DNA from: an uncultured Clostridia bacterium
Lineage (GTDB): Bacteria; Bacillota; Clostridia; Christensenellales; UBA1242
Assembly: GCA_944383315.1 (NCBI GenBank)
Contig: CALWPB010000004.1
Coordinates: 10,818 to 74,817 of the forward strand
DNA: 64,000 nucleotides
Direction of reading: 5' to 3'
Part shown: in pieces, positions 43,641 through 63,633 of the stretch
Layout of the letters: every line of letters starts with the position of its first letter
Position numbering within the stretch: position 1 is the first letter of the stretch
The notes under the pieces: generated by a model
Database searches by the model: none
What the model was told of the DNA's origin: nothing
The model's input: the letters and a program-made list of their open reading frames with translations, nothing else
Position numbers and translations under genes: made by a program

Positions 43641-45943
43641 TATAAAAACACAAAATCGCCTGTTTGTCCGTTGTCGGTATCATCATTAGTTGTTGAGTTG
43701 TCTATTGGGGCAAAGCGGGCTTGGACTATTTTTCCTAATACTGTTGCGCGGGATAATATGGTGGTTTCGTCCGTGCTAACTTGTATCCCGTCTATGTACC
43801 AACCTACAAAGCGGTAGCCTTGCATTTGCACTGCGGCTATTAGGGTAACTGTGTCCGTTGTGGAGTATGTGTCCCCTATTATTCGGGCTTCCCCGCCTAT
43901 ACTTGCGGTTATTGCCGTGTTGTTGTCTAGGTCAAAAGACAGGCTTGGAGTGGCTGATGCGTCCACACTAAATACTGGCACTACCTCCACTCCTTCGGCT
44001 TGTTCGCGTGGGAGTGTTAGGGTTGTACCCGTGTATGTGGTGCCGTTTTCAGTGTATAGCATATCCCCTACATACCAGCCGATTAGGTAGTATCCTGTAT
44101 ACGGTATCGCTTCGTATGATACTGTAGCACTGGTTGTGCCTGTGCCTAGGTCATTGCCACTTATACGAACTTCCCCGCCTAGTGTTGCGCTAGCAAATGC
44201 ATTTGAGCGTTTAAAGTATGCTACCGCTGTGGTATCTTGAGTTATAGTAAAGGTATAAACTGTACCCGCTGTATCATTTCGTACTCCATTGATTAACCAG
44301 TAATCAAGCCGGTATCCGTCATTTGCGGTAGCGGTCAGGGTTACTTGGTCGCTATATATTCCGCCACTTTGGGAACGAGAATATGTGGCTGTACCCCACG
44401 TATTGTTATTTGAAGACACAGACACAGTACACGGGGTAAATACTGCGGTGTATGTGGCATTACCTGTTACGGTGGGGCGATATGTGGTGCTTGTGGATAC
44501 CTGCGAGCCATTACGTTCCCATTGGACAAATTTATATCCAGTAATAGGTGTAGCGGTGAGTGTGGCGGTGGTGTTGATTGTGTATGTTCCGCCGCCTGTT
44601 GCTGTCCCTGTACCTGTTGGAGATACTGCTGTACTAATGGTAGCGGTGGCGGGCTCGAATATAGCGGTATAAGTATAACTGCCTGATACAGTGAAAGTAT
44701 AACTTGCACTTGTAGATACTTGGGTGCCGTTACGTTCCCAGCGAACAAAACGGTAGCCACTGTTAGCAGTGGCACGCAAAGTTATCGAAGTACCCTGCTT
44801 ATATGTGCCACCACCTGATACTGTGCCAGAGTTTGCGGGAGTATAGTTTGTTGTGATTGTATAACTTGGTAGTAAATCTTCTAGTGCTGAAAGGGAGAGA
44901 TGAGCGGCAGGACGGACGCCGTAGCTATAGTACACATAGTCGAAGCGAGCGGAGCCCGTGGAGCCCACTCGCACCGCATAGTAGTTAAAGTCAGAGAGGC
45001 CGGAGCGCAGCCAGCAATAGTTGCTGTAACCGCTACTACTACTTGAAGTAGACGTATTTGTATCTAATCGTACCGTGCTAAACGCACGGTCAGTGGCAGT
45101 TAAGCCCCATAAGCCATTGTTTACCTGTACACCATTCGTTGCTGATTGATTGAATACTTCTACACTACTTGGTATCCAGAATTTATCATTGTATGGTGGA
45201 TTTGTACTATCCCATAAGTTTTGTGCCCAACCTGTATATTTACCGCTATAACTTTTTAATCCATTGTGGTGGTCATAGTATGAACTACCCCAAGTGTATA
45301 CATCTTCCGTTTGTGTGGCTTGCCAAGTTGCATTCGCTTCATTTGGTGAGCGAACTATTGTGCTGAAATTGTTTAATTTAGCGGCTATTAAATCATAAAT
45401 ATTATTGGTTACGTCCCTTAGTACTGATTTGGAATAGTTACTATGTTCTGAATAAGGAGCATTACCTGAATAATCTGAAAATGGACTTGATGTTGATACA
45501 TTAGCATTATAATCATTATAATCGCTTACTGTATAATTTTTTGTCATCCAAATAGTTAAGTAGCCATTACGAGCGTATACTGCTTGCCAAGTGATTGGCT
45601 TACTTGTATCCATTACGCCACTTGGTGATACATAATACCCCATATTAAAGATAAAACTGTTTGTTGCGGTTATGCCTGCTTGGTCTGCTATTTGTGGGCT
45701 TGTATATGTACCGCCACTTGTTACAAAGTCTAGTTTGTCTACAAATTGAGATACTGCGTTTGCATTGAGTGAGCCATCTGTGTTGTATAAGTTGCCGCTA
45801 ATACTTAGAGTTGTTTCCCTTGTGGCGTTTGCTTTATTTATATGATTAACAATCAAGTATACACCGCTACCGATTAAAGCACCTGCCATAAAAACGACAG
45901 CAACTATAACACTTATTAACCTTGCTTTTGCGCTTAACTGCAT
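43640..45943 (-). CDS. Membrane-anchored surface protein with a DUF6273/CLec-like domain carrying a DGR variable region, followed by InlB-B-like repeats (putative DGR target 1)
   Basis: N-terminal TM; KFWIPSSVEV...CWLRSG...YGVRPAAHL; repeated T.TL.AT...GY.F..W units. Confidence 0.8.
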   Translation of the reverse strand: MQLSAKARLISVIVAVVFMAGALIGSGVYLIVNHINKANATRETTLSISGNLYNTDGSLNANAVSQFVDKLDFVTSGGTYTSPQIADQAGITATNSFIFNMGYYVSPSGVMDTSKPITWQAVYARNGYLTIWMTKNYTVSDYNDYNANVSTSSPFSDYSGNAPYSEHSNYSKSVLRDVTNNIYDLIAAKLNNFSTIVRSPNEANATWQATQTEDVYTWGSSYYDHHNGLKSYSGKYTGWAQNLWDSTNPPYNDKFWIPSSVEVFNQSATNGVQVNNGLWGLTATDRAFSTVRLDTNTSTSSSSSGYSNYCWLRSGLSDFNYYAVRVGSTGSARFDYVYYSYGVRPAAHLSLSALEDLLPSYTITTNYTPANSGTVSGGGTYKQGTSITLRATANSGYRFVRWERNGTQVSTSASYTFTVSGSYTYTAIFEPATATISTAVSPTGTGTATGGGTYTINTTATLTATPITGYKFVQWERNGSQVSTSTTYRPTVTGNATYTAVFTPCTVSVSSNNNTWGTATYSRSQSGGIYSDQVTLTATANDGYRLDYWLINGVRNDTAGTVYTFTITQDTTAVAYFKRSNAFASATLGGEVRISGNDLGTGTTSATVSYEAIPYTGYYLIGWYVGDMLYTENGTTYTGTTLTLPREQAEGVEVVPVFSVDASATPSLSFDLDNNTAITASIGGEARIIGDTYSTTDTVTLIAAVQMQGYRFVGWYIDGIQVSTDETTILSRATVLGKIVQARFAPIDNSTTNDDTDNGQTGDFVFL
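44901..45019 (-). repeat. DGR variable region VR1
   Basis: 99/119 nt identical to 61775-61893; all mismatches at codon positions 1-2. Confidence 0.85.
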
Positions 45944-46369
45944 AACACCACCCCCTTAGCTTGTGCGGGTGAGATCCTTCGTCTTAGGCTACGCGGGGAG
46001 CGCTCAGGATGACTATTTGCACTAGCAAATAGTCTGGCGGTAGTTTGTGCTATATTGGAATGCGGATATTCCCGCCAGCCGTGCAAAATATTAGTAAATA
46101 GGCTAGCAGAAGTAAATGTACTAGTAAGAAACAGATATTCCCGCCAGCCCAGTACTTTAATATCATATAGTTGTTGCAGACAACGCTTAGGCTGGCTTTC
46201 CGTGTGTGTAGTGAATGGATAAAATACACCCCATTGACTTACAAAGGGTTGTTCGTTATTTATTCGTTTTTGTGGAGAGAGAAAACTTGAAACAAGTTTT
46301 TTATAGGCTAAAAAGTACCCCCCCCCCCATACTATTTGGAAGGTTTGGGGCTAGTGTGTAACTATACAT
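45934..46369 (-). other. Leader ORF frameshifted at a G11 tract (putative phase-variable uORF overlapping the target start codon)
   Basis: AAGGGGT RBS and ATG at 46369; stops at 46301 with G11; with G10 or G13 it joins a 127-codon stop-free frame (46317-45937) ending TAA at 45936-45934. Confidence 0.55.
45971..46013 (-). repeat. REP-like hairpin GTCATCCTGAGCG...CGAAGGATCTC (copy 1)
   Basis: Matches the copies at 63671-63711 and 55659-55703. Confidence 0.65.
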
Positions 46370-46400
46370 AGCATTACCCCTTTTTTGTTATCTTACTTAA

Positions 46401-46429
46401 ATTTTAACAAAATATACTGCTTTTTGCAA
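46401..46429 (-). promoter_or_regulatory. Sigma-A promoter for the leader ORF and DGR target 1
   Basis: Minus strand TTGCAA-17 nt-TAAAAT with extended TG, about 30 nt upstream of the leader ATG. Confidence 0.6.
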
Positions 46430-46735
46430 ATGCACGCTTTAAGTTTGGCTCATTTTGAAATTACAATAAAAATATTGTTAAAAAGCGGGCAAAAACAGTT
46501 AAACTTGGAGATTAAATATACAATTTTTGTATTACAATATTGTATTAATAACTCAAAAAAACAAATTTTTTACAAAATTTAGCCATTATCATAATAATAA
46601 TCGAGAATATAAAATCATTTTTCCTTTCAAATTTTAAAGGGCAACTACAAAAAATATTTTTATAGTTTTATAAAAAATACGGAGATATTCTCCGTAAGTC
46701 AAACAAAACAAATTTAAAATGATAAAATTTAATTT

Positions 46736-46993
46736 ATGGATAAAATAAATAATTTCGCAAAAAATCTAGTAGAAGAACGGCGGGCGCGAAACATTTCACA
46801 ACGGAAATTAGCCGAATATCTTAATGTTGATGCCTCGCTTGTATATCAATGGGAGCACGAAAAGTGCGAACCCGGTCTTGATACTCTTTGTAAAATCAGT
46901 GCATATTTCGACATACCTATTGACGAATTGTTAGGGGCAAAATACCCCACCGCTTTATTAAACGAACAAGAAAGAAAAATTGCTCAAAATTAA
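46736..46993 (+). CDS. XRE-family HTH regulator
   Basis: ISQRKLAEYLNVDASLVYQWEHEKCEP...FDIPIDELLG. Confidence 0.87.
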   Translation: MDKINNFAKNLVEERRARNISQRKLAEYLNVDASLVYQWEHEKCEPGLDTLCKISAYFDIPIDELLGAKYPTALLNEQERKIAQN

Positions 46994-47298
46994 TACTTTT
47001 CCGCTTTTTGAAAGCGGATTTTTTATTAAATATTTATTTAGGTATACAGTTTTGTAATCCCAATCCATTTTCAGTAAAAAATATGATAAAAACAACATAA
47101 TTTTTGCAAATTTATGGTATTTCACCTACTCATAAAAATTAATTTTTATATTAACTTTTTATTAATAACAAAAAATTTACAACATTTCACCTGCCTTTTT
47201 GTATTTTTTTATCATTATATCACAAAATATGGTTACACGCAACCATATTTTATTGTTTTTTAAGAGTAAACTTGAAGAAAAGTTCAGGAAGTGTAAGA

Positions 47299-47541
47299 AT
47301 GAATAGTGTAAATCGCGCAGTAGCATTGAGAATTAAAGAATTGTTGAAACAAAAAGGCATCACTCAGTATAGGCTGGCTATGAACAGCGGAGTTACTCAT
47401 TCCACACTTAAAAACATTATACACGAAACAATTAAAGACAATTTGCTATCTACTGTCATTCTTATTGCTGGCGGTTTTGATATGACGGTAAGCGAATTTC
47501 TCGACTCCCCCCTTTTCTTAGAAGAAAATCTCAACATTTAG
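47299..47541 (+). CDS. Cro/C1-type HTH regulator (HTH_26-like)
   Basis: AVALRIKELLKQKGITQYRLA..SGV.HSTL..I...FDMTVSEF.DSPLF. Confidence 0.85.
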   Translation: MNSVNRAVALRIKELLKQKGITQYRLAMNSGVTHSTLKNIIHETIKDNLLSTVILIAGGFDMTVSEFLDSPLFLEENLNI

Positions 47542-47733
47542 GGTTTTAATTTCCTATATAATATATAGACATTTTTTTATGTAAAAATTTCTAATATATC
47601 AAAAAAATTGATAACTAAAACAAATTGAATAAAAATATATATTTTGTTTAAAAATGCAAATAATAGAAATATGTTTGACATTTGTTTTATTTTTAATTAA
47701 GATTAGAGTGTAATTTATAAGGAGGGAGATTTT

Positions 47734-48234
47734 ATGGCTAAAAAATCCAAGAGTTCATTTATGAACATAATTTGGGGAATTTTGGTGCTCGCGGGACTTG
47801 TGTTGCTCGTACTACCGATGTTTTTAAATATCTTTGAAAGAATCGGTACTCTTGGCGAACACTCCGAAGTACTTGGTTCGTATAAGATATTTGCTGACCT
47901 AAGTATTTACGAATCTGGTGGACTTGCTACTGCTGTAAGTGTAATGCTGGTTATCGGGCTTTGCCTTGCTGCTATTTACCTAATACTTTACTGCATTGAC
48001 TCATTTACAAAAGTTAAATTTAATTGCTCAAAAATTAGAATGTTCATCGCTTTCTTGTTGCTTGCATTGTTTGTAGCGACACTCATTTGCGGACTTGTAT
48101 TTGCTAGTGAAGCAATTAGCGCAAGCATTAGCGATGTTGTTGGTACAAGTATGATTTGCGGCGCTGGCTTCTGGCTCGGTGTTGTGGGTATGCTAGTTGC
48201 GTCAATTTTTGGGTTCCTTGCAGCAAAAAAGTAA
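47734..48234 (+). CDS. Four-TM membrane protein
   Basis: Four hydrophobic segments; AAGGAGG RBS. Confidence 0.7.
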   Translation: MAKKSKSSFMNIIWGILVLAGLVLLVLPMFLNIFERIGTLGEHSEVLGSYKIFADLSIYESGGLATAVSVMLVIGLCLAAIYLILYCIDSFTKVKFNCSKIRMFIAFLLLALFVATLICGLVFASEAISASISDVVGTSMICGAGFWLGVVGMLVASIFGFLAAKK

Positions 48235-48427
48235 ACTTATAATTATGCAAAAACTTGAAAAAGTTTATCAAAAAGGTGGTTTATCCGCCTTTTATTTTAT
48301 ACCCTAATTTAATTGACAATACGCTAGTTTGCTGTTATACTCGCAAACGGTATAAGGGCTATTTGGATATTCTAATTTGAACACTCCACACTTCCCAATG
48401 CGCCAATAATTTAAAAGGAATATACTT

Positions 48428-49609
48428 ATGAAAATCAAAATAATCGGTGTAACAGAAAGCAAACTTGAAAACGTAGACGGCAGAAGCGATACTCCCTATC
48501 AATTTTGCGCAAAGGCAATGGGGGCTTGTGTTTCTTCTAATCCGCTTGAACTAATGGCTACGGAAAATTTGGACACAACTTTAAAAAGGCTCGACCGTAC
48601 TCTAAAAGAACGCCATCACAGCGGTTTTGATATGTATAATATCGTACTGGAAATGGACGATGTTTCAAAAATTTTCTGTATGTTTCTCAACAATTTACAC
48701 ACATTCACGACCGAAGAAACAAGCGGCAGGCACAAAGAATTGGTGCTTCCCCCCAAAGAAAAGGCGGTTTTTGATTATTTTTACGGCAAATTTTACAACT
48801 ATGCTTGCGAAAAATCGCCTGATGCTCCCGAACGTGTTAAAAAACAAATCGCACTTGAAAATGCTCGTTACACAACGGGACTTAATGCAAAAACGAATAT
48901 TGTGCATGCTGTAACGTTGCGCCACCTGAATTACGTATACAATATGGCAAAAAATCTACTTAACAAAGAAAATCTCAACATCTATGAGCAACTTGTATTG
49001 CCTGATATGCAAAATTTTTGCGACATTCTGGACGAAATGACCATTGAGAACGAACCTATTATTAACCCTATTTTGCAAAAGGACCCATACGGGCGCGAGT
49101 TTAATCTATTTGGCGATGGAAAAAAGCACGCGGAGCATTTTGGCAAAACGTACGAGATTTACTATCAAGCTTCAGCGACCGCTGCGGCACAGTTGCAACG
49201 CCACCGCTCTATTTATATGGAAATGAGCGTCCCTAAAAAAACTACTTATTACGTCCCTCCAATTGTTAAAGAACTTGATTTGCAAGATGATTGGGTTGAG
49301 AAAATTGCCCAATTAAATAACGTTCCGCAAGCACGTTTACTTGATGTTTGCGAAACGGGACAACTAGCAAATTACATAATGAAAATGAAAGAACGTTGCT
49401 GTGAGTATGCTCAAGAAGAAGCAAAATTTATAACCAAAGAACAAGCAAACAAAATATTTAAAGGGCTTGAACAATATGACAGAGAACTTGCTGCACAAAT
49501 GCAACTCGCTTACGGTAACGGAAAAAATAGACGCGACTTTCCCGACTACAAATGTGTATGTTCCCACCCGTGCAAACCTGTGAAATTAGAACAAGAACGA
49601 CAAATTTAA
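48428..49609 (+). CDS. thyX: FAD-dependent thymidylate synthase-like protein (tandem-domain ThyX)
   Basis: HHSGFD, EETSGRH, ENARY and QLQRHRS motifs; TTGACA-17-TATACT promoter upstream. Confidence 0.7.
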   Translation: MKIKIIGVTESKLENVDGRSDTPYQFCAKAMGACVSSNPLELMATENLDTTLKRLDRTLKERHHSGFDMYNIVLEMDDVSKIFCMFLNNLHTFTTEETSGRHKELVLPPKEKAVFDYFYGKFYNYACEKSPDAPERVKKQIALENARYTTGLNAKTNIVHAVTLRHLNYVYNMAKNLLNKENLNIYEQLVLPDMQNFCDILDEMTIENEPIINPILQKDPYGREFNLFGDGKKHAEHFGKTYEIYYQASATAAAQLQRHRSIYMEMSVPKKTTYYVPPIVKELDLQDDWVEKIAQLNNVPQARLLDVCETGQLANYIMKMKERCCEYAQEEAKFITKEQANKIFKGLEQYDRELAAQMQLAYGNGKNRRDFPDYKCVCSHPCKPVKLEQERQI

Positions 49610-49727
49610 GTAAAACTGCAATTATTTTAGTCGAAAAAACGCAAAAAACATTTTACAAAGGCATTTAATTGCCTTTTTTTGTTTGAAATGCTATAATTTC
49701 CAATAAAAAATTAATGGAGATGATACT

Positions 49728-50756
49728 ATGAAATGCTTTGTTACTGGCGGTACTGGACACATTGGTAATGTCCTTATAAAAAAATTATTAAAACTTGGAC
49801 ATACCGTACGTGCTCTTGTCTTACCTAACGAAGACTTGACACCAATAAAAGACCTTGATATTGAATTAGTTACAGGCGATATTACTGATAGAGATTTTAT
49901 CTTTAATGCTATACAGGCAGATGAAATAGTCTTTCATCTGGCTGGTGTAATTGAAATTGCAGGCGGACGAGATGAATTAGTTGAAAAAGTAAACGTGCAA
50001 GGCACTATTAATGTTGCTGATGCCTGCATTGCAAAAAATGTAAAATTGATTTACACAAGTTCGGTACACGCTATTGAACCTATTTCTAATGTAGTACTTT
50101 CTGAGCCTACCGAATTTGACGAAAACAAAGTTGTTGGAGTATATGCAAAAACAAAAGCAAAAGCAACTAAATATATTTTTGATGCCGTTAAAGATAAGGG
50201 ATTGCAAGCGGTTGTGGTCTACCCTTCTGGTGTAATTGGCCCGTGCGATTATAAAGTTTCCGAACTAGGTCAAGTACTACTCGACTATATAAACGGAAAA
50301 ATGGCGGGATACATTCAAGGCGGCTACAATTTTGTTGATGTACGAGATGTGGCTGATGGAATAATAAATGCAGCAACAAACGGTCGCATTGGCGAAGGCT
50401 ACAACTTAACAGGAGAAGTTGTATCAATCAAGCAAATGTTTCAATCAATAAATCTTTGTCTGCACAAAAACTACCTTCCTCCAAAAGTACCATTATGGAT
50501 AGTAAAAATATTTACAAAAGTAAGCACATTCCACTATCGCCGACTTGGTAAAAAACCGATACTTAGTGATTACTCAATTTACACTCTTAACGTAAATTCA
50601 AATTTCAGTAATGAGAAAGCCAAGACTGAACTTAACTTTAAAAATCGTGATTACAAACAAAGCCTTTGCGATGCTTTAAAATGGTTTGTAAAAAATAAAC
50701 CAGAATTAGTTTCAAGTAAAATAATTAAAAAACTACAAAAACACCAAGTAGCATAA
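49728..50756 (+). CDS. NAD-dependent epimerase/dehydratase (dihydroflavonol-reductase-like extended SDR)
   Basis: VTGGTGHIG, FHLAG, YTSS, YAKTK and VDVRDVA motifs. Confidence 0.9.
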   Translation: MKCFVTGGTGHIGNVLIKKLLKLGHTVRALVLPNEDLTPIKDLDIELVTGDITDRDFIFNAIQADEIVFHLAGVIEIAGGRDELVEKVNVQGTINVADACIAKNVKLIYTSSVHAIEPISNVVLSEPTEFDENKVVGVYAKTKAKATKYIFDAVKDKGLQAVVVYPSGVIGPCDYKVSELGQVLLDYINGKMAGYIQGGYNFVDVRDVADGIINAATNGRIGEGYNLTGEVVSIKQMFQSINLCLHKNYLPPKVPLWIVKIFTKVSTFHYRRLGKKPILSDYSIYTLNVNSNFSNEKAKTELNFKNRDYKQSLCDALKWFVKNKPELVSSKIIKKLQKHQVA

Positions 50757-51061
50757 TATTATAAAATAAAACATATTTTTGCTTTTAAAAATCATTTTTG
50801 GCATAAAATTGTTATGTATATTTATACAATATATTTATAATTTAAATAGCATAATATATCGCATAATATATATAATTTAATTTTTTTAACTAAATATATA
50901 TTAAATTTAAAATTATTATAAATATAAACAAGTATAAATATTCATAAATAATATTATAGTATAATATAAATGATAAACAAAAAGTATATCAAATTATTTG
51001 ACATAATTTTCAAAATCGTTTAAAATTTTACTATATTATTTATTTTAGGAGAGTGTAAATT

Positions 51062-51910
51062 ATGATTAGAATTGTTGCTGACTCATCGTGCGATATTTCA
51101 CAAGAGGAAGCTAAAGAATTAAATGTTGAAATTGCCCCTATCCCTGTATCATTTGGTAATGATACCTATATGGATGGGATTGATATAAATGCTGATAAAT
51201 TTTACGAAATGTTGATAAATTCCAAAGAACTACCTACTACCGCTCAAGTGAACCCTTTGGAATATATAGAAAGATTTGAAGAAGTAGCAAAAACTGGAGA
51301 TAGTTTACTTATCATTACTTTATCTTCCAAACTTTCAGGGTCATACGGAAATGCTTGTATGTTTAGAAAAGAAGTTGATTATCCAGAAATTGAAATCGTA
51401 GATTCGTTAAACACAATTAATATGATGAAAATATTGGTCCGCGAGGCTGTAAAAAAACGTGCAGAAGGTTTAAACGTTCACGAAATTGCAGAATATCTAA
51501 ACAAATTTAAGAAGCGAATAAAACTTGTTGCAGTAATCGACACACTTGAATATTTACATAAAGGTGGCAGGCTCTCTGGTACAGCAAAAGTAGTTGGTAC
51601 ACTATTAAATATTAAACCACTTATTTCAGTCATTGACGGTGAAGTTAGAATGATTGGCAAAAAACCTGGCATTAATAAAGCGCTTGAACAACTCGTTGTT
51701 GAATTTGATAAATTTGACCGCGACACAAACTACCCTATCATTTTTGGTTATGCAATGAGTCCTGATAAAATGAATGCATTTATTGAAAGATTGAAAGTTG
51801 ACCACGAACTTGGAAATTATGAAACCTGTGGAATTGGGCCAGTAGTAGGAGTACACATAGGTCCTGGCGCTTGTGCCGTAACTTGCGTAGTAAAAGAAGG
51901 TACTGAATAA
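51062..51910 (+). CDS. DegV family protein (FakB-like)
   Basis: IVADSSCD, PTTAQ, LSSKLSGSY, LEYLHKGGR and GVHIGPG motifs. Confidence 0.93.
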   Translation: MIRIVADSSCDISQEEAKELNVEIAPIPVSFGNDTYMDGIDINADKFYEMLINSKELPTTAQVNPLEYIERFEEVAKTGDSLLIITLSSKLSGSYGNACMFRKEVDYPEIEIVDSLNTINMMKILVREAVKKRAEGLNVHEIAEYLNKFKKRIKLVAVIDTLEYLHKGGRLSGTAKVVGTLLNIKPLISVIDGEVRMIGKKPGINKALEQLVVEFDKFDRDTNYPIIFGYAMSPDKMNAFIERLKVDHELGNYETCGIGPVVGVHIGPGACAVTCVVKEGTE

Positions 51911-52161
51911 ATTATTTTAATAGTATAAATTAAAAAATCACGTAACAATTTACGTGATTTTTTTATAAAAGCAAGTATTCTTAATCAATCTTTAACTATA
52001 AAAAATTTTCTATTTCAGTTATATTATTTATTAAATTTTGCTTGTATTTTTATTTTATAGTAAAATATTTTATATTTATAACAATATTTTAATATACTAT
52101 GCAATGTATTATGCAATAAAAAACAAATAAAAACCATAGTACAGTGATGGTTTTTATAAAT

Positions 52162-54917: not shown

Positions 54918-55023
54918 ATTACTGTAATTTGTGTTGTAAAAAATTAAACAATTATTGCTTTATTACTAAATATTGGCATATACGAAATAAACGCATATAA
55001 TATTTTATTTAAAAGGAGTAATT

Positions 55024-55194
55024 ATGGAAAACGCGAAAACACACAAAGAAGGTAAGCCAACTAATGCAGTTATAAAGTTTAATATACAAAAGAATATTAA
55101 GTCGAAATATTTTGAGCACAAATACAACAGTCTTGATAAAAAAGCACAGAGAAGCACACCTCTACATAAAAATAACGAGCAAATGGATAGATAA
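55024..55194 (+). CDS. Small hypothetical protein (56 aa, below the ORF-track cutoff)
   Basis: AAAGGAG RBS; MENAKTHKEGKPTNAVIKFNIQKN...NEQMDR*. Confidence 0.45.
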   Translation: MENAKTHKEGKPTNAVIKFNIQKNIKSKYFEHKYNSLDKKAQRSTPLHKNNEQMDR

Positions 55195-55252
55195 ATTTTG
55201 TCATTTTGTTGACAACTATCCTTTTTTTTATTAACTGTTAAATTTAAGAACG

Positions 55253-55591
55253 TTAAATTAGCAGTACTGTTATACCCGAGTTTGAGAAAAAGAGTTCGGG
55301 GTCGCCTATTACCTCTGGGCAAAGTCTTTTTATCTTTTCCGCTGTTTCGCTTGCGAGCCATTGTTCGCCCTTGACAAAATCGCTAATAAAGCCCTTATGC
55401 TTTGCACGTGGTAGCCAAATTTTGAGCGCGCGCTTAATTTCTCCACCAACACCGTGAGAGCCGTAGCCGTGAATAATTTTCATAGCAACTATTCCCTCTC
55501 GTCTAGCAATTTCAATCTCAATCTCAAGAATAGCAAGGGCTTGGTCAACTGTGGGCTGATTTTCTTTTAAATTTATAGTTTTGTATTTCAT
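55253..55591 (-). CDS. Smr/MutS2 domain protein
   Basis: KIIHGYGSHGVGG and NSGITV motifs. Confidence 0.85.
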   Translation of the reverse strand: MKYKTINLKENQPTVDQALAILEIEIEIARREGIVAMKIIHGYGSHGVGGEIKRALKIWLPRAKHKGFISDFVKGEQWLASETAEKIKRLCPEVIGDPELFFSNSGITVLLI

Positions 55592-55710
55592 AATTTTATT
55601 ATAGCACTTTTATTTTAGTTTAGCAAATACTAGTATATTAAAATCATTTAAAGAAAATGAGATTCTCCGTAATACGTCAAGGAAAGAGTACTCAAAAAAT
55701 GTCTTGATAT

Positions 55711-55739
55711 AAAAAAATCACGGTAATACCGTGATTTTT
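55711..55739 (-). terminator. Terminator of the rplJL operon
   Basis: AAAAATCACGGT-aat-ACCGTGATTTTT. Confidence 0.75.
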
Positions 55740-55753
55740 AATTAAAGGCAAAA

Positions 55754-56146
55754 CTATGCCAATTCAACTTCAGCACCAGCTTCTTTGAGCTTGCTTTCAA
55801 TTTCTTTAGCTTCGTCTGGGCTAACGTTTTCTTTAACAGCCTTAGGAGCAGCCTCAACAAGTTCCTTAGCTTCTGTAAGTCCAAGACCTGTAATTTCTTT
55901 AACAACTTTGATAACTGCTACTTTGCTTGCGCTTGCGCCAAGACCTTTAAGAACTACATTGTAAGTTGATTTCTCTTCTGCTGCAGCAGCTGCAGGAGCA
56001 GCGCCAGCGGCAACAGGAGCAGCAGCAACTGCTACAGGAGCAGCAGCGCTTACGCCAAATTCTTCTTCAAGCAATTTAACCAATTCGCTTACTTCAACAA
56101 CGGTTAATGCTTTGATTTCTTCCAAAATGTCATTAATTTTTGCCAT
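55754..56146 (-). CDS. rplL: 50S ribosomal protein L7/L12
   Basis: [10 protein letters not shown] and [24 protein letters not shown] motifs. Confidence 0.98.
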
Positions 56147-56176
56147 AATGATTTTTCTCCTTAATTTGATTTTAAA

Positions 56177-56692
56177 TTAGTTTTTAGTTGCAATCCCATT
56201 TAAGCAACGTACCAATCCTTGAACGGTACCGTTCAAAGCATAGCAAAGATTTCTTGCTGGACCTTGGAGTACACCAAGAAGTTGAGCAATAAGTACTTCT
56301 TTGCTAGGAAGATTAGCAAGGGCCTTGAGAGCAGCATCATCGATGTAGTTTTGTTCGAGCAAACCGAATTTCATAGAAATGCCGGCTTTTTCAGACATCT
56401 TGTCGATAACGTTTGCTGCTTCGGTTTCGCCATTGTAACTGAATGCGATTGCGAGTGTGCCTTCGAGTTTGCCATCAAGACAAGTAATGTTTAATTCGTC
56501 AAGTGCAAGTTTCACCAAACGGTTTTTATAAACGTGGTATTCACAACCTGCTTCGCGCATTTTGTTACGCAACTCAGTGTCGTTTGCAACGTTTATACCC
56601 TTGTAGTCAACGAACACAACACACTTTGCACGAGAAATTTTGTCTTTGATGTCTTCAACAATTTTCTTCTTGTTTTCAAAATTTGCTGACAT
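56177..56692 (-). CDS. rplJ: 50S ribosomal protein L10
   Basis: VDYKGINV...LR...VYKNRL and LANLPSKEVLIAQLLG motifs. Confidence 0.96.
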   Translation of the reverse strand: MSANFENKKKIVEDIKDKISRAKCVVFVDYKGINVANDTELRNKMREAGCEYHVYKNRLVKLALDELNITCLDGKLEGTLAIAFSYNGETEAANVIDKMSEKAGISMKFGLLEQNYIDDAALKALANLPSKEVLIAQLLGVLQGPARNLCYALNGTVQGLVRCLNGIATKN

Positions 56693-56724
56693 TAACTCTG
56701 TAACCCTCCCTTGTCTAGTATTCT

Positions 56725-56840
56725 AACAAAACAAAAATCCCTGTGCCAAATGAAGCACAGAGATTTACACCCTGCTAAAACTTCACCTCGGCAAGCCCTT
56801 TCGGTTTACGTAGCGGACTACACTTGCGGTCTTTGGCAAA
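56725..56840 (-). ncRNA. L10 ribosomal protein leader with attenuator hairpin
   Basis: AAGACCGCAAGU...GCUUGCCGAGGU kink-turn-like core, then CUGUGC/GCACAG hairpin and U-tract, upstream of rplJ. Confidence 0.75.
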
Positions 56841-56930
56841 AGAAATCTTTATTAAATTAGTGTCAATATGATATCACAGTTTGAGAATAAATGCAAGACT
56901 TTATACTAAAATTTTTTAAATATTTTATCT

Positions 56931-58430
56931 TTACCCTCTTAATTCTTCAAAGACTACACTACCATCAAGCCAAGACATTATATACCCTGCTAGTTTTTTG
57001 TGTGTTGCGGACTCAAATGATTCGATTAAATCTGCGGGTTTTGCGTTTTTAAACATATTATTCTCATAGAAATGTTGAAGGCTATCTACCATTTTGTTTT
57101 CCCCAATCATTTCGCTAATGCTATCAAACATTAACACGCCTTTTACATAAGTAAGGTACACATATTCAGTTTCTGTGTTAAACTTGTGAATATTCCTATT
57201 CATACTGGTATCAAATTCGTCATAGACATCGCGGTAGACATCGCAAAATAGCAAGTATGAACTCAAAGCAGATGCAAAAACTTGTTCGCTTGTGCGGTTG
57301 TAACTAGGATTTCTATCGTAAAACAATGCAGTTGAATAATCAGCAAGGCCTTCATCTATCCAAGCATATTCACATTCATTATTTCCAACAACACCATACC
57401 ACCACTGGTGCGCTATTTCGTGAATAATTACGTTGTTATACTCGCTATCTACATCGACTTCATCGCTAATATACACAAGGTTTGGATATTCCATACCGCC
57501 TTGCAAGAAGTTTGTTTTTGCTACATTTAGTATAGTATAAGGATACTCGCCTATCATTTCATTAAATGTGGTGAGTGCGTCAACAGCGGTTTGCAAATGA
57601 GCGGCTGCATTCGTGTCATCATAGTAATAATAATTTATTGTAGTGTTGCCTACTGTTGCGGTTGAGACTTCATACTTTTCGCTAAACACTAGAGCAAAAT
57701 CACGTACAGCGCGGGCATTTATTGTAGATGTAGTAGTTGCCGTGCTGGTAGTGCTTTCTAATACTGTCCCTGTGCTTGCCATTTTTAAGGTGCTAGGATA
57801 AGTAATTTTTACATTATAATTTGATATATCACTATAAAAAGGGTCACCATTTGGTGAATAGCCATCTGTGGCAAATTCCCCATCTTCAAACACGCACGCA
57901 ATCGGGTACCAGTTCCCAAGATTTAGAGTATTTTCACCATAGCCAAACCTATGATTGCAGTTTGGAATAAGCAAATCAAACTCGATTATCACATCTACAT
58001 AACTATTTGGGCGCAGCACAGAATCAAGCGGGACAGTTAAGATATTTTCGTCTTCGCCAGTTATGGCAAAATCAATTTCCTTGCCTGTAATTGTTACTTT
58101 ATTAATAATTATATGACCTTCCGAAAACCCATTTGGGTATGCTCGTGGTTTTTGAGTTTCATTTACTGCTTTGTAGGTATCTGCATCGGCGCGAAATGCA
58201 TTTGGATACAAATGGAACTTTAACTCGTTTAACTCGTTTTTGCTAGTATTGATATAGCGTACATTTTCTGTTGCGTCAAGGGTTTTATTCTCATAGTCAA
58301 GAGTCGCTGTTATATCATAATTTGTTGCCAATTTTGCGGCATTTTCAAGCGCGTTGACCTGTCCACATCCTGCAAACAAAAACAACACAGCGCAAACACT
58401 AACCAAAACTGAACCAAATTTTTTATTCAT
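56931..58430 (-). CDS. M1-family (gluzincin) aminopeptidase, lipoprotein
   Basis: Lipobox FAGC; GGMEYP, HEIAHQWW and WIDEGLA motifs. Confidence 0.9.
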   Translation of the reverse strand: MNKKFGSVLVSVCAVLFLFAGCGQVNALENAAKLATNYDITATLDYENKTLDATENVRYINTSKNELNELKFHLYPNAFRADADTYKAVNETQKPRAYPNGFSEGHIIINKVTITGKEIDFAITGEDENILTVPLDSVLRPNSYVDVIIEFDLLIPNCNHRFGYGENTLNLGNWYPIACVFEDGEFATDGYSPNGDPFYSDISNYNVKITYPSTLKMASTGTVLESTTSTATTTSTINARAVRDFALVFSEKYEVSTATVGNTTINYYYYDDTNAAAHLQTAVDALTTFNEMIGEYPYTILNVAKTNFLQGGMEYPNLVYISDEVDVDSEYNNVIIHEIAHQWWYGVVGNNECEYAWIDEGLADYSTALFYDRNPSYNRTSEQVFASALSSYLLFCDVYRDVYDEFDTSMNRNIHKFNTETEYVYLTYVKGVLMFDSISEMIGENKMVDSLQHFYENNMFKNAKPADLIESFESATHKKLAGYIMSWLDGSVVFEELRG

Positions 58431-58513
58431 AATCGCTCCAAGTTTTTTTTTGATAATATATGCGGTTGTGCTGATGCTTTATGATAAATATTTTGTTTTA
58501 GCGGGAAATCAAA

Positions 58514-58601
58514 GCGGGGCGCTTCGCGCGTATACGCGCGGGCGAACTATGTTCGCCAATCAATTCCCCCGCTTTTGCGGAGAATTGATAAAGCGCCCCG
58601 C
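58514..58601. repeat. GC-rich four-way-junction palindromic element
   Basis: 11-bp outer inverted repeat enclosing three hairpins. Confidence 0.6.
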
Positions 58602-58702
58602 ACACGCACTGCAATATTTTAAAATGCAACTATAAATTTTTAAATACATTGGACTTGCGTTTTGCGACAAATTTTGCTACAATAACCATACGAGGTTTTA
58701 TT

Positions 58703-60163
58703 ATGGCTTTTTGTAAATTTTCAACTGAATATCTAGCAAAATCGTACACGGTAATAGACAACCTATTTTTTACCCGTTTTCTTACCAACACTCCGCCAAA
58801 ACACGCGACCATATACCTATACGGGCTGTACATTTGCTCGCAAAATGACGATATAACTCTTACCCGCTTTGCTGAAAATATGGGATATACGGAAGACGAA
58901 ATAATCGAAAGTTTTGAGTACTGGCAAGAGCAAGGCATTGTACGAATTGTAAGTGCTGAGCCTTTTCAAGTGCAGTACTTACCTATCCGCAACATTGGCA
59001 GCAGTAACCGAAAATACGACAAAGATAAATTTGTAAAATTTAATGTTGAAGCGCAAAATATCCTTTCCGAGCGAATGATTACACCAAATGAATTTGAAGA
59101 ATATTACACACTTATGGAAGGATACACACTACCAGACGGGCGCAAAATCAGTAGCGAAGCATTGCTTATGATTATTCGTTTTTGCGTACAAAATAAAGGG
59201 GCTAATGTTGGATACCGATACATTATTGCTGTAGCGCGTGATTGGGCGGCTGCTGGATATGTTACCCCCGAACAAATTGAGCGCAGGCTCGAAGAATACA
59301 GCGCATCAAGTGTTGCTGTTAGCAGTATCCTAAAAGCACTTGGTTCTACCAGAAAGACAAGCCTTGATGAGCATCAATTCTATCTCAAATGGAAAGAATG
59401 GGGTTTTAGTGATGACTGCATTTTATCCGTTGCAAAAGCCATCAAAAAGAGCGGCAAAGCGAACTTTGAAAAATTAGACAAGAAATTACAGAAATATTAT
59501 GAGTTGCATCTACTTTCTGCAAAAGAGATAGAAGACTACGAAAAGAATTTAGATAAAATTTACACCCTTGCGCGTGATATAAACAGGACTTTGGGGCTAT
59601 ATTACGAAGATGTGAGCAACCAAATAGAAACATACATAAACCCGTGGTTAAGTTTTGGATATGAGCCTAAAACGCTTCTTAACATAGCGCAAAGTTGTTA
59701 TCTCAAAGGCAAGCGCACACTGAATGCCCTTAATGATGAGATTCAAACACTTTTTAACAACGGTATTGTTTCGGCAAAATCTTATGAGCAATACAGCAAC
59801 AACCAGAAAAACATACAGACAGACATTGAAAAAATGCTCAAAATACTTGGAATTGTGCGCAATGCAACAAGTTTTGATATGGAATTTTGGAACCGCTGGA
59901 CTGTATCTTGGGCATTTAATAATGACATAATTGATTATGCGGTATCGCTTGCCAAAGAGCGCGGCGGAAACCTAACCTATGTAAACACCATACTTGCAGA
60001 CTGGCACTCGCAAAATATCTATACTTTGGAGCAAGCAAAACTTGCAAGTGATAATTACAAAGTGGCAAAGACTAAAAGCACTTCTTCAAAAATTACCTCA
60101 CGCAAGTATACGAAAGAAGAAAACGAATCTATATTTGATAAATTTAACGAAATGGAAATTTGA
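58703..60163 (+). CDS. DnaD/DnaB-domain replication protein
   Basis: IDNLFFT.FL..., repeated YI..V..DW and YVNTILADW DnaD motifs; start trimmed to the ATG after GAGG. Confidence 0.8.
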   Translation: MAFCKFSTEYLAKSYTVIDNLFFTRFLTNTPPKHATIYLYGLYICSQNDDITLTRFAENMGYTEDEIIESFEYWQEQGIVRIVSAEPFQVQYLPIRNIGSSNRKYDKDKFVKFNVEAQNILSERMITPNEFEEYYTLMEGYTLPDGRKISSEALLMIIRFCVQNKGANVGYRYIIAVARDWAAAGYVTPEQIERRLEEYSASSVAVSSILKALGSTRKTSLDEHQFYLKWKEWGFSDDCILSVAKAIKKSGKANFEKLDKKLQKYYELHLLSAKEIEDYEKNLDKIYTLARDINRTLGLYYEDVSNQIETYINPWLSFGYEPKTLLNIAQSCYLKGKRTLNALNDEIQTLFNNGIVSAKSYEQYSNNQKNIQTDIEKMLKILGIVRNATSFDMEFWNRWTVSWAFNNDIIDYAVSLAKERGGNLTYVNTILADWHSQNIYTLEQAKLASDNYKVAKTKSTSSKITSRKYTKEENESIFDKFNEMEI

Positions 60164-61110
60164 GTATGAACAAAAAACAAATTATTCAAGATGAATTATA
60201 TAAATTAGACTTGAAGCGCAGTCAAGCGGAGATAGCGGCTGTGGCTGCTCTAAGGTGTGCAAGAGAAATTGCCGAATTTCGCGAAATAGACGATAAAGTG
60301 CGCGCCTTAAAGTTGCAACTTGCAAAATTTGAGCCAAACAGTACCAAAGCAGCAGATATTAAGAAACAACTTGCGCAACTAGACAAGCAAGGTAAACAAA
60401 TTTTGAAAAAGCACAAATTTGATATTTCTACCCTAGCAGTTAAACACGATTGCCCCAAATGCAATGATACAGGCTTTGTGGATGGGGTTATTTGCGATTG
60501 TTTAAAGCACAATGTACAACAGGCTTTAATTAAACAATGCGGGCTTAACAACAAGTTGAACTTTGATTTTTCTAAAAGTGATGAGAAAGTGCTTGCCGAT
60601 AACCCACAATTAAGCAAAGCATACCGTTTTGCACACAAGTACTGCGAAAATTTCCCGAACAACAAAGAGTCGAATTTAGTATTTTACGGTGAAGTTGGTA
60701 CTGGTAAAACCTTTCTGCTTGAATGTATCGCAAATGAGTTGATGAAAAGATTAAATTATGTTGTTTTCTCGACCGCTTATGATATAAACAAAACAATGAT
60801 TAAGGCATTCAACTCACCTTTTAGCGAACGCGATACGATACTTGCGCCGCTATTTGAAAGTGATTTACTGATTATAGACGACCTTGGCACTGAACCACTT
60901 TATCACGAATCTACACTTACCAACCTATTTACACTTATAAACGAGCGCCAACGCAATAATCTTGCTATGATTGTCAGCACCAACCTTACACCAGACCAAA
61001 TTAACGAACGCTACGGCAATCGCATAAAATCGCGCCTATTTAATCAAAATATTACTATAACTATCCCCTTTTTAGGCAGCGATTTGAGATTGAAGAAAAA
61101 AATGTCCTAA
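60160..61110 (+). CDS. DnaC/DnaI-like helicase-loader ATPase
   Basis: CPKCNDTG...CDC zinc site, GEVGTGKT, LLIIDDLGTE and STNL...RI.SR motifs. Confidence 0.85.
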   Translation: MSMNKKQIIQDELYKLDLKRSQAEIAAVAALRCAREIAEFREIDDKVRALKLQLAKFEPNSTKAADIKKQLAQLDKQGKQILKKHKFDISTLAVKHDCPKCNDTGFVDGVICDCLKHNVQQALIKQCGLNNKLNFDFSKSDEKVLADNPQLSKAYRFAHKYCENFPNNKESNLVFYGEVGTGKTFLLECIANELMKRLNYVVFSTAYDINKTMIKAFNSPFSERDTILAPLFESDLLIIDDLGTEPLYHESTLTNLFTLINERQRNNLAMIVSTNLTPDQINERYGNRIKSRLFNQNITITIPFLGSDLRLKKKMS

Positions 61111-61131
61111 CACTAGGACATTTTTTCAGTT

Positions 61132-63633
61132 TTAGGCAAAATCGGCCGTTTGGTTGTTGTCTGTTTCGGTGTTCATATCGTTTTGATTGGGAATTAATGC
61201 AAAGACAGCAAAGACTTGTTTATCTTGAATTAAGTTATATGGGATGTTTGCGCTGGCTAGGTAATTTTGGTTAGTTGTACTGTCTATAAGTATTTCTCCG
61301 TCCACTTGCCAACCAACAAAGTAATATCCCGTATATGCTACCGCACTAAAATGAACGTAATCTATTCCGTTTAAAGTGGTGTAACCTGTTATTCGGGCTT
61401 CACCTGTTGCAGCGAGTGGTATATTATCTTGGTTGGTGGTGATTGTACCGTCTGTATTTTGGTATGCAATAGACACTGCTACCCCTTCTACACTCTTGCC
61501 AAATACAGCAGTGAGAGTGATATCGCCTGTTACTGTAAACGACAATGGGTTAAGTTCGCTAAATATTTCGTGAGTACTTGCATTTTCCCAGTATAGAAAA
61601 GCATAACCCGCGTTTGGTACTGCGATTAAATTAGATACTTGCTCACCTGTTGCTGCATTAACCGTTATGCTCTCGCCTATTTGTCCGTCTGCAAATACTT
61701 GTCCGTATTCGGAGTTGTTGGTGGTGATGGTGATATTTTTAGGTAATAAATTAGCTAAAGCATCTAAATCTAAGTGAGCGGCAGGACGGACGCCGTAGCT
61801 AGAGTCCACATCGCCGTAGTAAGCGGAGCCCGAGGAGTTCACTCGCATCGCACGGTTGACATTGCCAGAGTGGCCGGAGCGCAGCCAGCAATAATAACTT
61901 GTACTTGTACCGTCATAATTACTTGTATTAAATGAGCGGTCAGTGCTATTTAATCCCCATTGCCCCGTATAACTTGTAGTATTGTTTGTCCAACTTGCGT
62001 TCTGGTTATTCATTGTTTCACCCGCCGATGGCAACCATAAATAACTACTATTCGCTACCGCTGACGCTAAATTGTTGTATGTACTTGTAATAATACTATT
62101 TGTAGTATACCAATATGTTGTATTTGCTGTACTTGTATCTTGATAACCTACCGTCGCTGGTAGTTCAAATATTGATTGTAATGTACCACTACCCATAGTA
62201 AGCGCAGACCATAATGTGTTGTCTAAATAATTTTGTATTGTACTATTTGCATAAGCGGTATAATTTACTGTTACACCACTCTCATTCCAAGTACTATTTG
62301 TATAATTTTTTACCATCCATATTGTAAGGTAGTTATTATGTAGGTATGTTGCTCGCCAATAAATTGATTCGCCACTTGTTCCGTTTACATACCCCATTGG
62401 GAATACTATGGTGCGGTCGGAGTTGTAGCCTGCGGTATTGTTGCGAGATGCGATTTGGTGGGCGGTGTATGTTGCTGTGTCGTTTTCGTGTCCAAAGTAT
62501 TGGACGGTTTCAAGTAATGTGGTTACAGCATCGGGGTTGATTTCGCCATCAGTGGTGTAAATGTTTTCGGTTAGAGTGATTGGGGTTGATTGCACTATTT
62601 CTGCTAAGGCATCCAAAGAGAGATGAGCGGCAGGACGAACGCCAGTGCTATTATACAATCCAGTGCTATAAGCGTCGCCCGAGAAGTAAACTACTGTTGC
62701 ATAGCTGTTATTATCAAAATTGCTGGAACGCAGACTGCAACAACTATGACTGTCACTTCCATCGTAATTTGTTTGATCAAATGCACGATCATTACTATTT
62801 AATCCCCATTGCCCTGTATATGTTGTAGTATTACTTTCATATTCACTAGGTGTGTTATTGAAAACTTCTCCAAAAGAAGGAAGCCATAAATAACTGCCAC
62901 TATATACCGACGATGCTAAATTATCAAACGTACTTGTAGTTATATTAAACATAGCACTATCATAAAACCAATAACTACTTATATCACTTTCATCCCAATT
63001 TAAAGATTCATCTCCTTCGTCTTGATAACCTACTGTTGACGGTAAGACAAATATTGATTGTAATATACTGCTATCTTGTGTGAGTGTTCCCCATAGTGTG
63101 TAGTCTAAATAGTTTTGTATTGTACTGTTAGCATAACTATTGTAAGACACTTCATACCCTCTACTATCCCAAGCACTATTGGTATATCCTTTTACCATCC
63201 AAATGGTTATATAATTATCGTGCAAATAGGTTGCTTGCCAGTATATACTCTCGCCACTTTTTCCGTCAGTACCAGCATACCCCATTGGGAAGATTATTGC
63301 ATCATCTGGGTTGTATGTGGCTGATGTGTTTGTATTACTTGCGTTATATGTACGTGTACGTATTTGGTGCGCTTTGTATGTGCCTGTATCGTTCATATGT
63401 TTGTAATACCCTACCGCTTCAAGTAATGCTTGTGTGGCTGTTGCATTTATTGTGCCATCTGTATTAAATATGTTTGTCTTTAATTCGGTACTGCTTACTT
63501 CGCTATCAAGCATTGCTTTACTTTTATTTAAGTGATTAACAATCAAGTATACACCACTACCGATTAAAGCACCTGCCATAAAGACCAATGCGACTATTAG
63601 GCTCACGAGCCTTGCTTTTGCGCTGATTTGCAT
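61132..63633 (-). CDS. Membrane-anchored surface protein with two tandem DUF6273/CLec-like domains, the second carrying a DGR variable region (putative DGR target 2)
   Basis: N-terminus almost identical to 43640-45943; two WLPS..E...LRS...GVRPAAHL units; C-terminal InlB-B-like repeats. Confidence 0.8.
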   Translation of the reverse strand: MQISAKARLVSLIVALVFMAGALIGSGVYLIVNHLNKSKAMLDSEVSSTELKTNIFNTDGTINATATQALLEAVGYYKHMNDTGTYKAHQIRTRTYNASNTNTSATYNPDDAIIFPMGYAGTDGKSGESIYWQATYLHDNYITIWMVKGYTNSAWDSRGYEVSYNSYANSTIQNYLDYTLWGTLTQDSSILQSIFVLPSTVGYQDEGDESLNWDESDISSYWFYDSAMFNITTSTFDNLASSVYSGSYLWLPSFGEVFNNTPSEYESNTTTYTGQWGLNSNDRAFDQTNYDGSDSHSCCSLRSSNFDNNSYATVVYFSGDAYSTGLYNSTGVRPAAHLSLDALAEIVQSTPITLTENIYTTDGEINPDAVTTLLETVQYFGHENDTATYTAHQIASRNNTAGYNSDRTIVFPMGYVNGTSGESIYWRATYLHNNYLTIWMVKNYTNSTWNESGVTVNYTAYANSTIQNYLDNTLWSALTMGSGTLQSIFELPATVGYQDTSTANTTYWYTTNSIITSTYNNLASAVANSSYLWLPSAGETMNNQNASWTNNTTSYTGQWGLNSTDRSFNTSNYDGTSTSYYCWLRSGHSGNVNRAMRVNSSGSAYYGDVDSSYGVRPAAHLDLDALANLLPKNITITTNNSEYGQVFADGQIGESITVNAATGEQVSNLIAVPNAGYAFLYWENASTHEIFSELNPLSFTVTGDITLTAVFGKSVEGVAVSIAYQNTDGTITTNQDNIPLAATGEARITGYTTLNGIDYVHFSAVAYTGYYFVGWQVDGEILIDSTTNQNYLASANIPYNLIQDKQVFAVFALIPNQNDMNTETDNNQTADFA
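61775..61893 (-). repeat. DGR variable region VR2
   Basis: 99/119 nt identical to 44901-45019 with the adenine-site mismatch pattern. Confidence 0.85.
62624..62742 (-). repeat. Degenerate VR-like copy (VR3) in the first CLec-like domain
   Basis: Gap-free and colinear with VR1/VR2, same CGTCCTGCCGCTCA end, but many synonymous changes. Confidence 0.65.

Follow-up and report, generated by a model that had tools for sequence, protein, structure and literature searches.

Dispersed surface-protein genes of a gut Clostridia genus as probable targets of a diversity-generating retroelement with an adenine-poor second template

Two variable regions and their family

The stretch analysed here, referred to as the window, comprises 64,000 nucleotides of one contig from an uncultured Clostridia bacterium (GenBank assembly GCA_944383315.1; genome G000 in what follows, with the window at G000:C4:10818-74817). 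On its minus strand lie two genes for large surface proteins, target genes A and B, each containing a segment that resembles the variable region (VR) of a diversity-generating retroelement (DGR). The two segments, VR_A (44901-45019) and VR_B (61775-61893), can be aligned on the minus (coding) strand with no gap and are identical at 99 of 119 positions. Their 20 mismatches fall in 15 codons, ten at first positions, ten at second positions, and none at third positions, and at 16 of the 20 sites one copy has an adenine. An earlier note had taken these figures from the letters alone and read them as the trace of a DGR; the recount returned the same values, and the DGR interpretation is supported. 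The segments are GC-rich (0.60 and 0.62) relative to their 120-nt flanks (0.37-0.45) and to the window (0.366), and identity between the flanks in ungapped comparison is 0.28 upstream and 0.42 downstream. The likeness of the segments is far beyond chance, and the unit, with invariant ends, recurs in nine intact copies on six contigs of G000. The two genes are very probably targets of a chromosomal DGR that acts in trans on a large family of paralogs, in a genus that also has a second template, TR2, proposed to write an “off” allele.

The host belongs to a small-genome genus of gut Clostridia, and the targets are membrane-anchored surface proteins composed of DUF6273 and InlB B-repeat domains. 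The product of gene A (P0001) starts with a membrane anchor, which is followed by a DUF6273-like domain with the VR at its end and by four InlB B-repeat (Flg_new_2) domains. Its Pfam matches are to Flg_new_2 (E 9.7e-43, four stretches) and DUF6273 (20.3 bits, under the cut-off of 23.5), and 61 homologues are present in the public protein collection, of which the named ones are InlB B-repeat proteins of Clostridia metagenome-assembled genomes (MAGs). The product of gene B (P0002) consists of two tandem DUF6273-like modules (E 1e-10, 42.2 bits, same cut-off), an InlB B-repeat domain (Flg_new_2, E 4.1e-9), and the C-terminal domain of the family. The InlB B-repeats of the two proteins are divergent. 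Both begin, by reading of the translations, with the N-terminal hydrophobic anchor that is common to the paralog family. The motifs WLRSG and YGVRPAAH stand in the translations as the earlier note gave them, and a feature unremarked there is that the VRs lie mid-protein rather than at the C-terminus (about residues 309-348 of 767 in P0001), followed by approximately 420 further residues in P0001 and 220 in P0002. DUF6273 has been reported to be C-type lectin (CLec)-like (PMC10743442).

G000 (903 kb in 26 contigs, 75.8% complete) contains 15 matches to VR_A. Nine VR units are intact, with a spacing of exactly 93 nt from TGGCTGCGCTCCGGC to GGCGTCCGTCCTGC, and three more are degenerate. Further VR-bearing paralogs had been expected by the earlier note and were found; the adenine-rich (AAY) copy that it expected beside a reverse transcriptase (RT) gene was not found in the G000 contigs, and none of the VR copies of G000 has an adenine at every variable site. 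VR matches occur in seven of the 17 genomes of the genus, with 24 in G001, 18 in G002, and 15 in G012, many of them at contig ends. All of these genomes are metagenome bins, in which repeats can be collapsed by assemblers.

The predicted adenine-rich template is present in other genomes of the genus, and the copy in G001, termed template repeat 1 (TR1), served as a proxy template for the nine VRs of G000. Mismatches fall at template adenines in 155 of 164 cases, in keeping with the multi-target DGR proposed in the earlier note. Scored against their own TR1, the 11 VRs of G001 have 192 of 209 mismatches at template adenines and the eight VRs of G002 have 139 of 146. Within the G000 VRs, the adenine positions of TR1 are changed in 155 of 288 instances (53.8%) and the other positions in nine of 675 (1.0-1.7% by base). 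The non-adenine sites of these VRs are 98.7% identical to the TR1 of G001, while ordinary DNA of the two genomes aligns at approximately 70-74%, and a VR scaffold so near the template of another species argues that overwriting is recent on an evolutionary scale. A recent-duplicate comparison, that of P0002 with the C18 gene, gives flanks that are only 87% identical.

Not all template adenines are equally affected. Those before G are changed in only 3 of 56 instances, against 45-64% in other contexts (VRs of G000, G001, and G002), and the wobble adenine of a CAA codon in TR1 is changed in none of 28. By eye, this codon has become CGA or CTA in some G000 VRs, with the wobble adenine still kept. 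Protein-level selection cannot explain the kept adenine because the codon is already CGA or CTA there, and a mechanistic context effect is possible for the spared AG-context adenines.

A third intact VR is found on the contig of the window, at C4:9565-9703 on the minus strand, 1.1 kb ahead of the first base of the window. The first module of P0002 ends in a VR-like unit that is AT-rich and diverged at its 5′ end but retains the 3′ motif GGCGTTCGTCCTGCCGCTCATCTCTC with one mismatch; this decayed unit is probably no longer rewritten. Between the two targets lie genes for ThyX, DegV, an M1 peptidase, DnaB_2, and a DnaA/IstB-type ATPase. These neighbours are housekeeping genes and not phage genes, as the earlier note had held in calling the setting non-phage, and the locus is not a prophage. 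Contigs that start or end in or beside a VR, or in or beside the cassette described below, include C17 (end) and C18 (start) of G000; C22, C24, C26, C76, and C37 of G001; and C4, C15, C17, C31, C32, C38, and C40 of G002. The VR family ranks among the main causes of broken assemblies in the genus, and parts of the DGR are easily lost from such bins.

Templates, reverse transcriptase, and Avd in sister species

TR1 is present in G001 (L063/L084), in G002 (L085), and in two copies in G012 (L052, L098). The G001 copy is the template that was deduced in this analysis from the VRs of G000. It is also a close match to the template string of the earlier note, which agrees in all but two bases (CAA, not CGA; TCG, not ACG), and the two bases left blank in that string read GC by eye. 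All six TR modules end in GCCGCTTCACTCC, a TR-type 3′ end that differs from the VR 3′ end GCCGCTCAyaTCTC, and VR_A ends in GCCGCTCATCTCTC, of the VR type. The distinction corresponds to that between the initiation of mutagenic homing (IMH) site of a VR and the IMH* site of a template. A search of the species-representative genomes for the exact 25-nt TR end gave only six sites, all in uncultured Clostridia MAGs.

Each template repeat of the genus, TR2 included, is followed by the motif GAG[A/G]TGAAGGG and then a short hairpin. The motif stands approximately 85-95 nt downstream of all six TR modules and of the RT-adjacent TR of G014. Because RNAalifold gave only a 5-pair hairpin for the region downstream of the TR, the feature is described as a conserved sequence element and is not claimed as a structure. 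It may be a priming or spacer part of the DGR RNA. A search of six loci (five with TR modules and one cassette locus) against Rfam returned nothing credible, with a best E of 0.34.

The RTs of G001, G002, and G012 are 389-390 residues long, carry IGNQTSQ and YMDD, share 79-85% mutual identity, and match RVT_1 at 52-61 bits. The motif reported for DGR RTs is [I/V/L]GxxxSQ (PMC7826257). The best solved relative of the G012 RT is 8ub7_A (E 2.9e-29). A bAvd gene precedes the RT in all three genomes, lying directly upstream in G012 and G002 (51-52 bits, cut-off 40), and the NCBIfam model DivGenRetAVD scores 38 bits, under its cut-off of 80. No TR was found within the 9-14 kb read around the RT of any of the three. 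The RTs lie on other contigs than the templates, which supports the action in trans that had been proposed from the window. The layout of the genus is one avd-RT operon, at least two stand-alone template modules (each a TR with its downstream element), and approximately 10-20 VRs in a genome of about 1.1 Mb. In the proposed mechanism, TR1 RNA, rich in AAC and AAT codons, would be copied by an Avd-assisted RT that miscopies adenines, and the resulting complementary DNA (cDNA) would replace the VR between the invariant ends TGGCTGCGCTCCGGC ... GGCGTCCGTCCTGCCGCT.

A compact classical DGR of another lineage, with a different VR family, stands next to EF-Tu in G006 (L023, G006:C2:6000-22000). Its order is RT, Avd (bAvd, 45.7 bits), TR (5741-5869), and a 341-residue target with a C-terminal VR (2952-3079), and its RT is only 46-49% identical to those of G001, G002, and G012.

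Several observations weigh against the window genes being targets of a working DGR, and activity in the G000 lineage is unproven. The G000 contigs contain no match to the RVT_1 or bAvd profiles, no tblastn match to the RT and Avd of the genus (in an assembly 76% complete), no TR, and no copy of GAG[A/G]TGAAGGG. A lysine-rich gene that neighbours TR1, 5′ of it in G001 and 3′ in G012, is mid-contig on G000 C17, where TR1 is absent on both sides; as the position of TR1 differs between G001 and G012, this synteny search decides nothing. VR_A is identical in P0001 and its strain variants P0003 and P0064, which differ at 25 other residues of 767, and turnover at VR_A is thus slow or stopped. One Logan contig of run X1 spans VR_A with 0 differences. 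No clean within-sample variation was found in the Logan contigs of four runs, in which paralogs cross-map at 85% likeness, and among the matches listed for X2-X4 none reaches across VR_A or VR_B. Runs containing the window stretch carry the labels synthetic, chicken gut, manure, or plain metagenome. For the target domain, phmmer found no solved relative among PDB sequences, and a profile search of the same collection gave chance-level matches alone (E 0.37 or worse).

Much of this would be expected if the VRs of G000 were frozen relics, the RT and templates having been lost while the window genes keep old scars. RT, Avd, TR, and the downstream element are all absent from the contigs, neither position syntenic to the TR1 of G001 or G012 holds a TR although the region is mid-contig, and VR_A is unaltered both among strain variants and in run X1. 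That the VRs are relics is nonetheless unlikely, for the assembly lacks about a quarter of the genome and the losses extend to ordinary genes. In G001 and G002, avd-RT adjoins tmk, holB, PSP1, a TP_methylase gene, and a PpiC-type rotamase gene, and no orthologs of these flanking genes were found in G000 at E 1e-10 (a weak Thymidylate_kin match elsewhere scores 31.5 bits). Contig C22 of G000 ends at base 42, where its synteny with G001 and G002 reaches the avd-RT block. Because the flanking housekeeping genes are missing too and C22 stops at this edge, the absence of the machinery is probably an assembly gap, and true loss has a low probability; the RT and TR of G000 itself would then lie in its unassembled quarter. 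Relics would also leave unexplained the 98.7% identity of the VR scaffold to the TR1 of another species and the presence of three G000 cassettes that are identical apart from T8 versus T9.

On G000 C17, at approximately 9715-10020, is a tRNA-like sequence in which the anticodon position reads CAT; its 3′ end (TTCAAATCCTACCCCCG) is repeated about 230 nt later (both by eye). The repeat could be the scar of an integration event, or else mark a second RNA gene.

The adenine-poor cassette and TR2

In paralogs of G000, G001, G002, and G012, the VR core is swapped for a cassette of 73-77 nt with only 1-3 adenines. The three G000 cassettes are identical except for a T-run, T9 at C1 and T8 at C3 and C17, a length polymorphism from slippage of either the RT or replication. 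P0072, the version of the C1 gene in another assembly, reads T8. The cassettes of G001, G002, and G012 are species-specific (73-76 nt, 2-3 adenines), and the first ~50 nt are 93-95% conserved among G000, G001, and G002 and 84-89% conserved with respect to G012. The template-type copy, TR2, is intergenic in G002, mid-contig on C9 between ordinary genes, and lies at the end of C11 in G001; in both genomes this copy carries a TR-type 3′ end together with the conserved downstream element. Every VR-type copy of the cassette is identical to the TR2 of its own genome, and the TR2s of G001 and G002 differ from each other. Two classes of template have the same homology ends, and copies of both stand at VR sites, those of TR1 with adenine-specific change and those of TR2 with no change. 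The cassette had 0 matches in JGI (Joint Genome Institute) metagenome contigs, and no source for it was found elsewhere in the DNA examined. An “adenine ratchet” origin of TR2, in which TR1 is overwritten by its own mutated cDNA, was rejected, as inspection by eye showed that TR2 does not retain the non-adenine skeleton of TR1.

The content of the cassette is that of an interruption. An in-frame TAG stands three codons into it in all four species, within the first of two hairpins in all versions. The second hairpin, GCTCGGGG/CCTCGGGC, is followed by T7-9 in all versions; the best match to the terminator consensus in L026 (10 pairs, 6 GC) is GCTCGGGG-loop-CCTCGGGC with CG and T8-9 after it. A terminator-like hairpin is predicted in all four species, with a G-to-A change in G002 that turns a G-U pair into A-U, and by consensus match the cassette is a putative intrinsic (Rho-independent) terminator. 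Cassette spacings of 92, 91, 88, 91, and 89 include no multiple of 3. TR2 cDNA would be made by the same RT and would home like TR1 cDNA, with the near-absence of adenines yielding a faithful copy. The insert, through its TAG, terminator-like hairpin with U-run, and frame shift, would end translation and probably transcription, and TR1 homing could overwrite the cassette to give an in-frame, diversified “on” allele. Most likely, TR2 retrohoming writes a faithful “off” allele that is reversible by TR1 homing, which suggests a presumptive on/off allele written by a DGR. A fuller model is held tentatively, at somewhat less than an even chance: a distributed DGR in which TR1 diversifies ligand-binding loops while an adenine-purged TR2 competes for the same sites, so that retrohoming would serve to diversify and, in the stem-loop-bearing subfamily, also to switch genes on and off reversibly.

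The interrupted genes are not in decay. Their upstream frames are open for 301-315 residues, and their downstream frames, from GVRPAAH, are open for 393, 426, and 429 residues where complete. The ratio of nonsynonymous to synonymous substitution (dN/dS) in the halves is 0.12-0.56, with one unsaturated pair at dN 0.033 and dS 0.237, and both halves are under purifying selection. The nine cassette genes whose downstream sequence can be read all have an 8-10 bp hairpin approximately 20 nt past the VR end, in which the sequence varies and the pairing is kept; the two genes of the window have no clear stem-loop after the IMH. A stem-loop after the IMH is a reported feature of DGR targets (PMC12875486). 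Two uninterrupted members of the subfamily, P0009 (728 residues) and P0066 (580 residues), carry a TR1-type VR in one open reading frame (ORF) each and are 84% identical to the downstream half of the C3 gene of G000. They differ from each other at 13 of 26 VR residues and at about 11 of 395 downstream. Interrupted forms in the public collection are P0065, P0067-P0070, and P0072. As judged from these sequences, a single target subfamily carries either a TR1-derived or a TR2-derived insert.

The C-terminal halves of P0009 and P0066 are 97% identical and their N-terminal halves unrelated, with the join at the VR. It may be that recombination at the conserved VR ends reshuffles domains between paralogs.

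Some findings weigh against TR2 as a second template. The nine cassette genes for which downstream sequence is available all fall in one subfamily (ISAS[LV]AS... after the VR), and on and off states have not been seen at one locus of one strain. A terminator within TR2 would shorten its own template RNA too, and collapse of repeats by assemblers may overstate the identity of the copies. All 15 observable adenines in seven VR copies of G001 and G002 equal those of their TR2, for which the chance at the mean rate of 0.54 is ~1e-5 (own arithmetic). The constancy is less unexpected because nine of the 15 are in the AG context, in which TR1 adenines seldom change; with site-class rates the probability is roughly 0.007-0.06 (own arithmetic). 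Context dependence is reported for the BPP-1 RT (PMC12875486).

The unchanged adenines are also what faithful recombination would give, and the cassette could be a small insertion or gene-conversion tract spread by ordinary recombination through the VR ends, with the TR2 modules as by-products with the TR1 module. The unrelated N-terminal halves joined to near-identical C-terminal halves in P0009 and P0066 indicate that recombination occurs at the VR. Such an origin is nevertheless quite unlikely, since tract boundaries match the TR/VR homology boundaries exactly in every copy, the homology arms are just ~18 and 20 nt, and two species have TR2 in orthologous-looking modules that include the TR-type end and downstream element. 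Recombination also leaves unexplained the presence of 1-3 adenines in 73-77 nt of a 36% GC genome, which would fit selection for faithful copying by an adenine-mutagenic RT.

A weaker rival than plain recombination is that the cassette is no off switch, the genes being expressed through it, whether by bypass, by frameshift, or from an internal start, or else made as two separate proteins. Both halves are open and under purifying selection in all sampled copies, and the stop lies in a hairpin beside a glycine codon, while in three of four species GGC recurs at the far end, an arrangement that recalls phage T4 gene 60. The spacing, however, is 1 or 2 mod 3 among copies, even within G000 (T8 versus T9), with which no fixed frameshift is compatible. 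Take-off and landing codons match in only two of four species (by eye), and no consistent start codon or ribosome-binding site is present in the downstream frame. Spacing, codons, and the scan for starts and ribosome-binding sites therefore do not support a fixed frameshift, translational bypass, or internal start. On-state alleles with a normal VR exist and explain the selection without recoding. Expression through the cassette is considered very unlikely, and writing of an off allele by TR2 remains the preferred reading.

Table 1. Positions of the features discussed. Plain numbers refer to the window; C and L prefixes denote contigs of G000 and loci, respectively.
Feature	Position	Strand	Remark
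Target gene A (P0001), 767 aa	43640..45943	(-)	ORF; Pfam matches
N-terminal hydrophobic anchor or signal, residues 1-33, MQLSAKARLISVIVAVVFMAGALIGSGVYLIVN	45845..45943	(-)	Read from translations
VR_A, DGR variable region	44901..45019	(-)	One of the nine VRs scored against TR1 adenines
VR_A 107-nt unit, TGGCTGCGCTCCGGC...GGCGTCCGTCCTGC	45013 to 44907	(-)	
Target gene B (P0002), 833 aa	61132..63633	(-)	ORF; Pfam matches
VR_B, DGR variable region, second module of P0002	61775..61893	(-)	Invariant ends as in VR_A
Decayed VR-like unit, end of P0002 first module (CCSLRSS...STGVRPAAHLSL)	62617..62745	(-)	
Intact VRs of G000	C1:4155, C3:30421, C4:9697, two window VRs, C6:19731, C8:33258, two in one C18 gene		
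Cassettes of G000	C1:81107(-), C3:12442(+), C17 end		76-77 nt, single adenine, invariant ends kept
Downstream element	L099:5000, L101:7920, L100:533(-), L103:5457(-), L102:670, L104:3992(-), L025:7963		

Relation to known systems

DGRs are known as diversifiers in which a single template adjoins a single RT and stop codons are avoided through adenine-rich codons. The finding in the window itself, a chromosomal DGR acting in trans on multiple targets, is of a type already known from Treponema and Thiohalocapsa. The DGR of Treponema denticola (TvpA and remote paralogs) is likewise chromosomal and non-phage, with one RT, several non-adjacent surface-protein targets, and adenine-specific differences. 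The largest number of non-adjacent targets reported in a DGR survey is seven (PMC5758913), compared with nine intact VRs and three cassettes in G000 and 15-24 matches in the sister genomes. Unlike in Treponema, the templates here stand alone on other contigs than avd-RT, and there is an adenine-poor second template.

The DGR of Bordetella phage BPP-1 (Mtd, avd, TR, brt) has in common with the present system the [I/V/L]GxxxSQ RT, the bAvd partner, and the IMH and IMH* ends; the stem-loop after the IMH, also a feature of BPP-1, is found here in the cassette subfamily. The adenine change rate of 51-54% is near the 51.6% reported for BPP-1 template adenines in vitro (PMC7826257). BPP-1, however, has a phage cassette with one C-terminal VR and a TR adjoining brt, whereas the present system is cellular, with dispersed, mid-protein VRs and several templates. 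Tentaclins are phage DGR targets with DUF6273 that are reported as receptor-binding proteins (PMC10743442). The DUF6273 targets of the window are, by sequence, built like tentaclins but are cellular and have an N-terminal anchor and InlB B-repeats. Nine DGR loci, with RTs of several classes and targets linked to conflict systems, are present in Thiohalocapsa PB-PSB1, and the parts of that account available here describe no adenine-poor template (PMC10907252). In the Clostridia genus, by contrast, scattered templates in a ~1.1 Mb genome are served by a single RT type, and the targets are surface proteins.

With phase-variable (contingency) surface-protein loci, the system would share a reversible on/off state as a population polymorphism. 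Known phase-variation switches work by slipped-strand repeats, invertases, or cassette recombination, whereas here reverse transcription of a dedicated template would produce the off allele. Full-text searches found no paper on an adenine-free DGR template, a DGR-written null allele, or scattered stand-alone templates, and supplementary tables of DGR surveys could hold such cases.

With avd-RT, templates, and approximately 10-20 VRs dispersed over a very small genome, this layout would be missed by surveys that seek a TR near the RT. The sparing of the AG context allows the question of which adenines escape mutagenesis to be tested in a natural system. If the RT uses TR2, then reverse transcription can install a defined, unmutated sequence at a chosen site in nature, and a DGR can silence its targets as well as vary them. 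Both the dispersed layout and the adenine-poor template bear on how surface-protein repertoires are managed by gut bacteria, and also on DGRs as tools for programmable editing.

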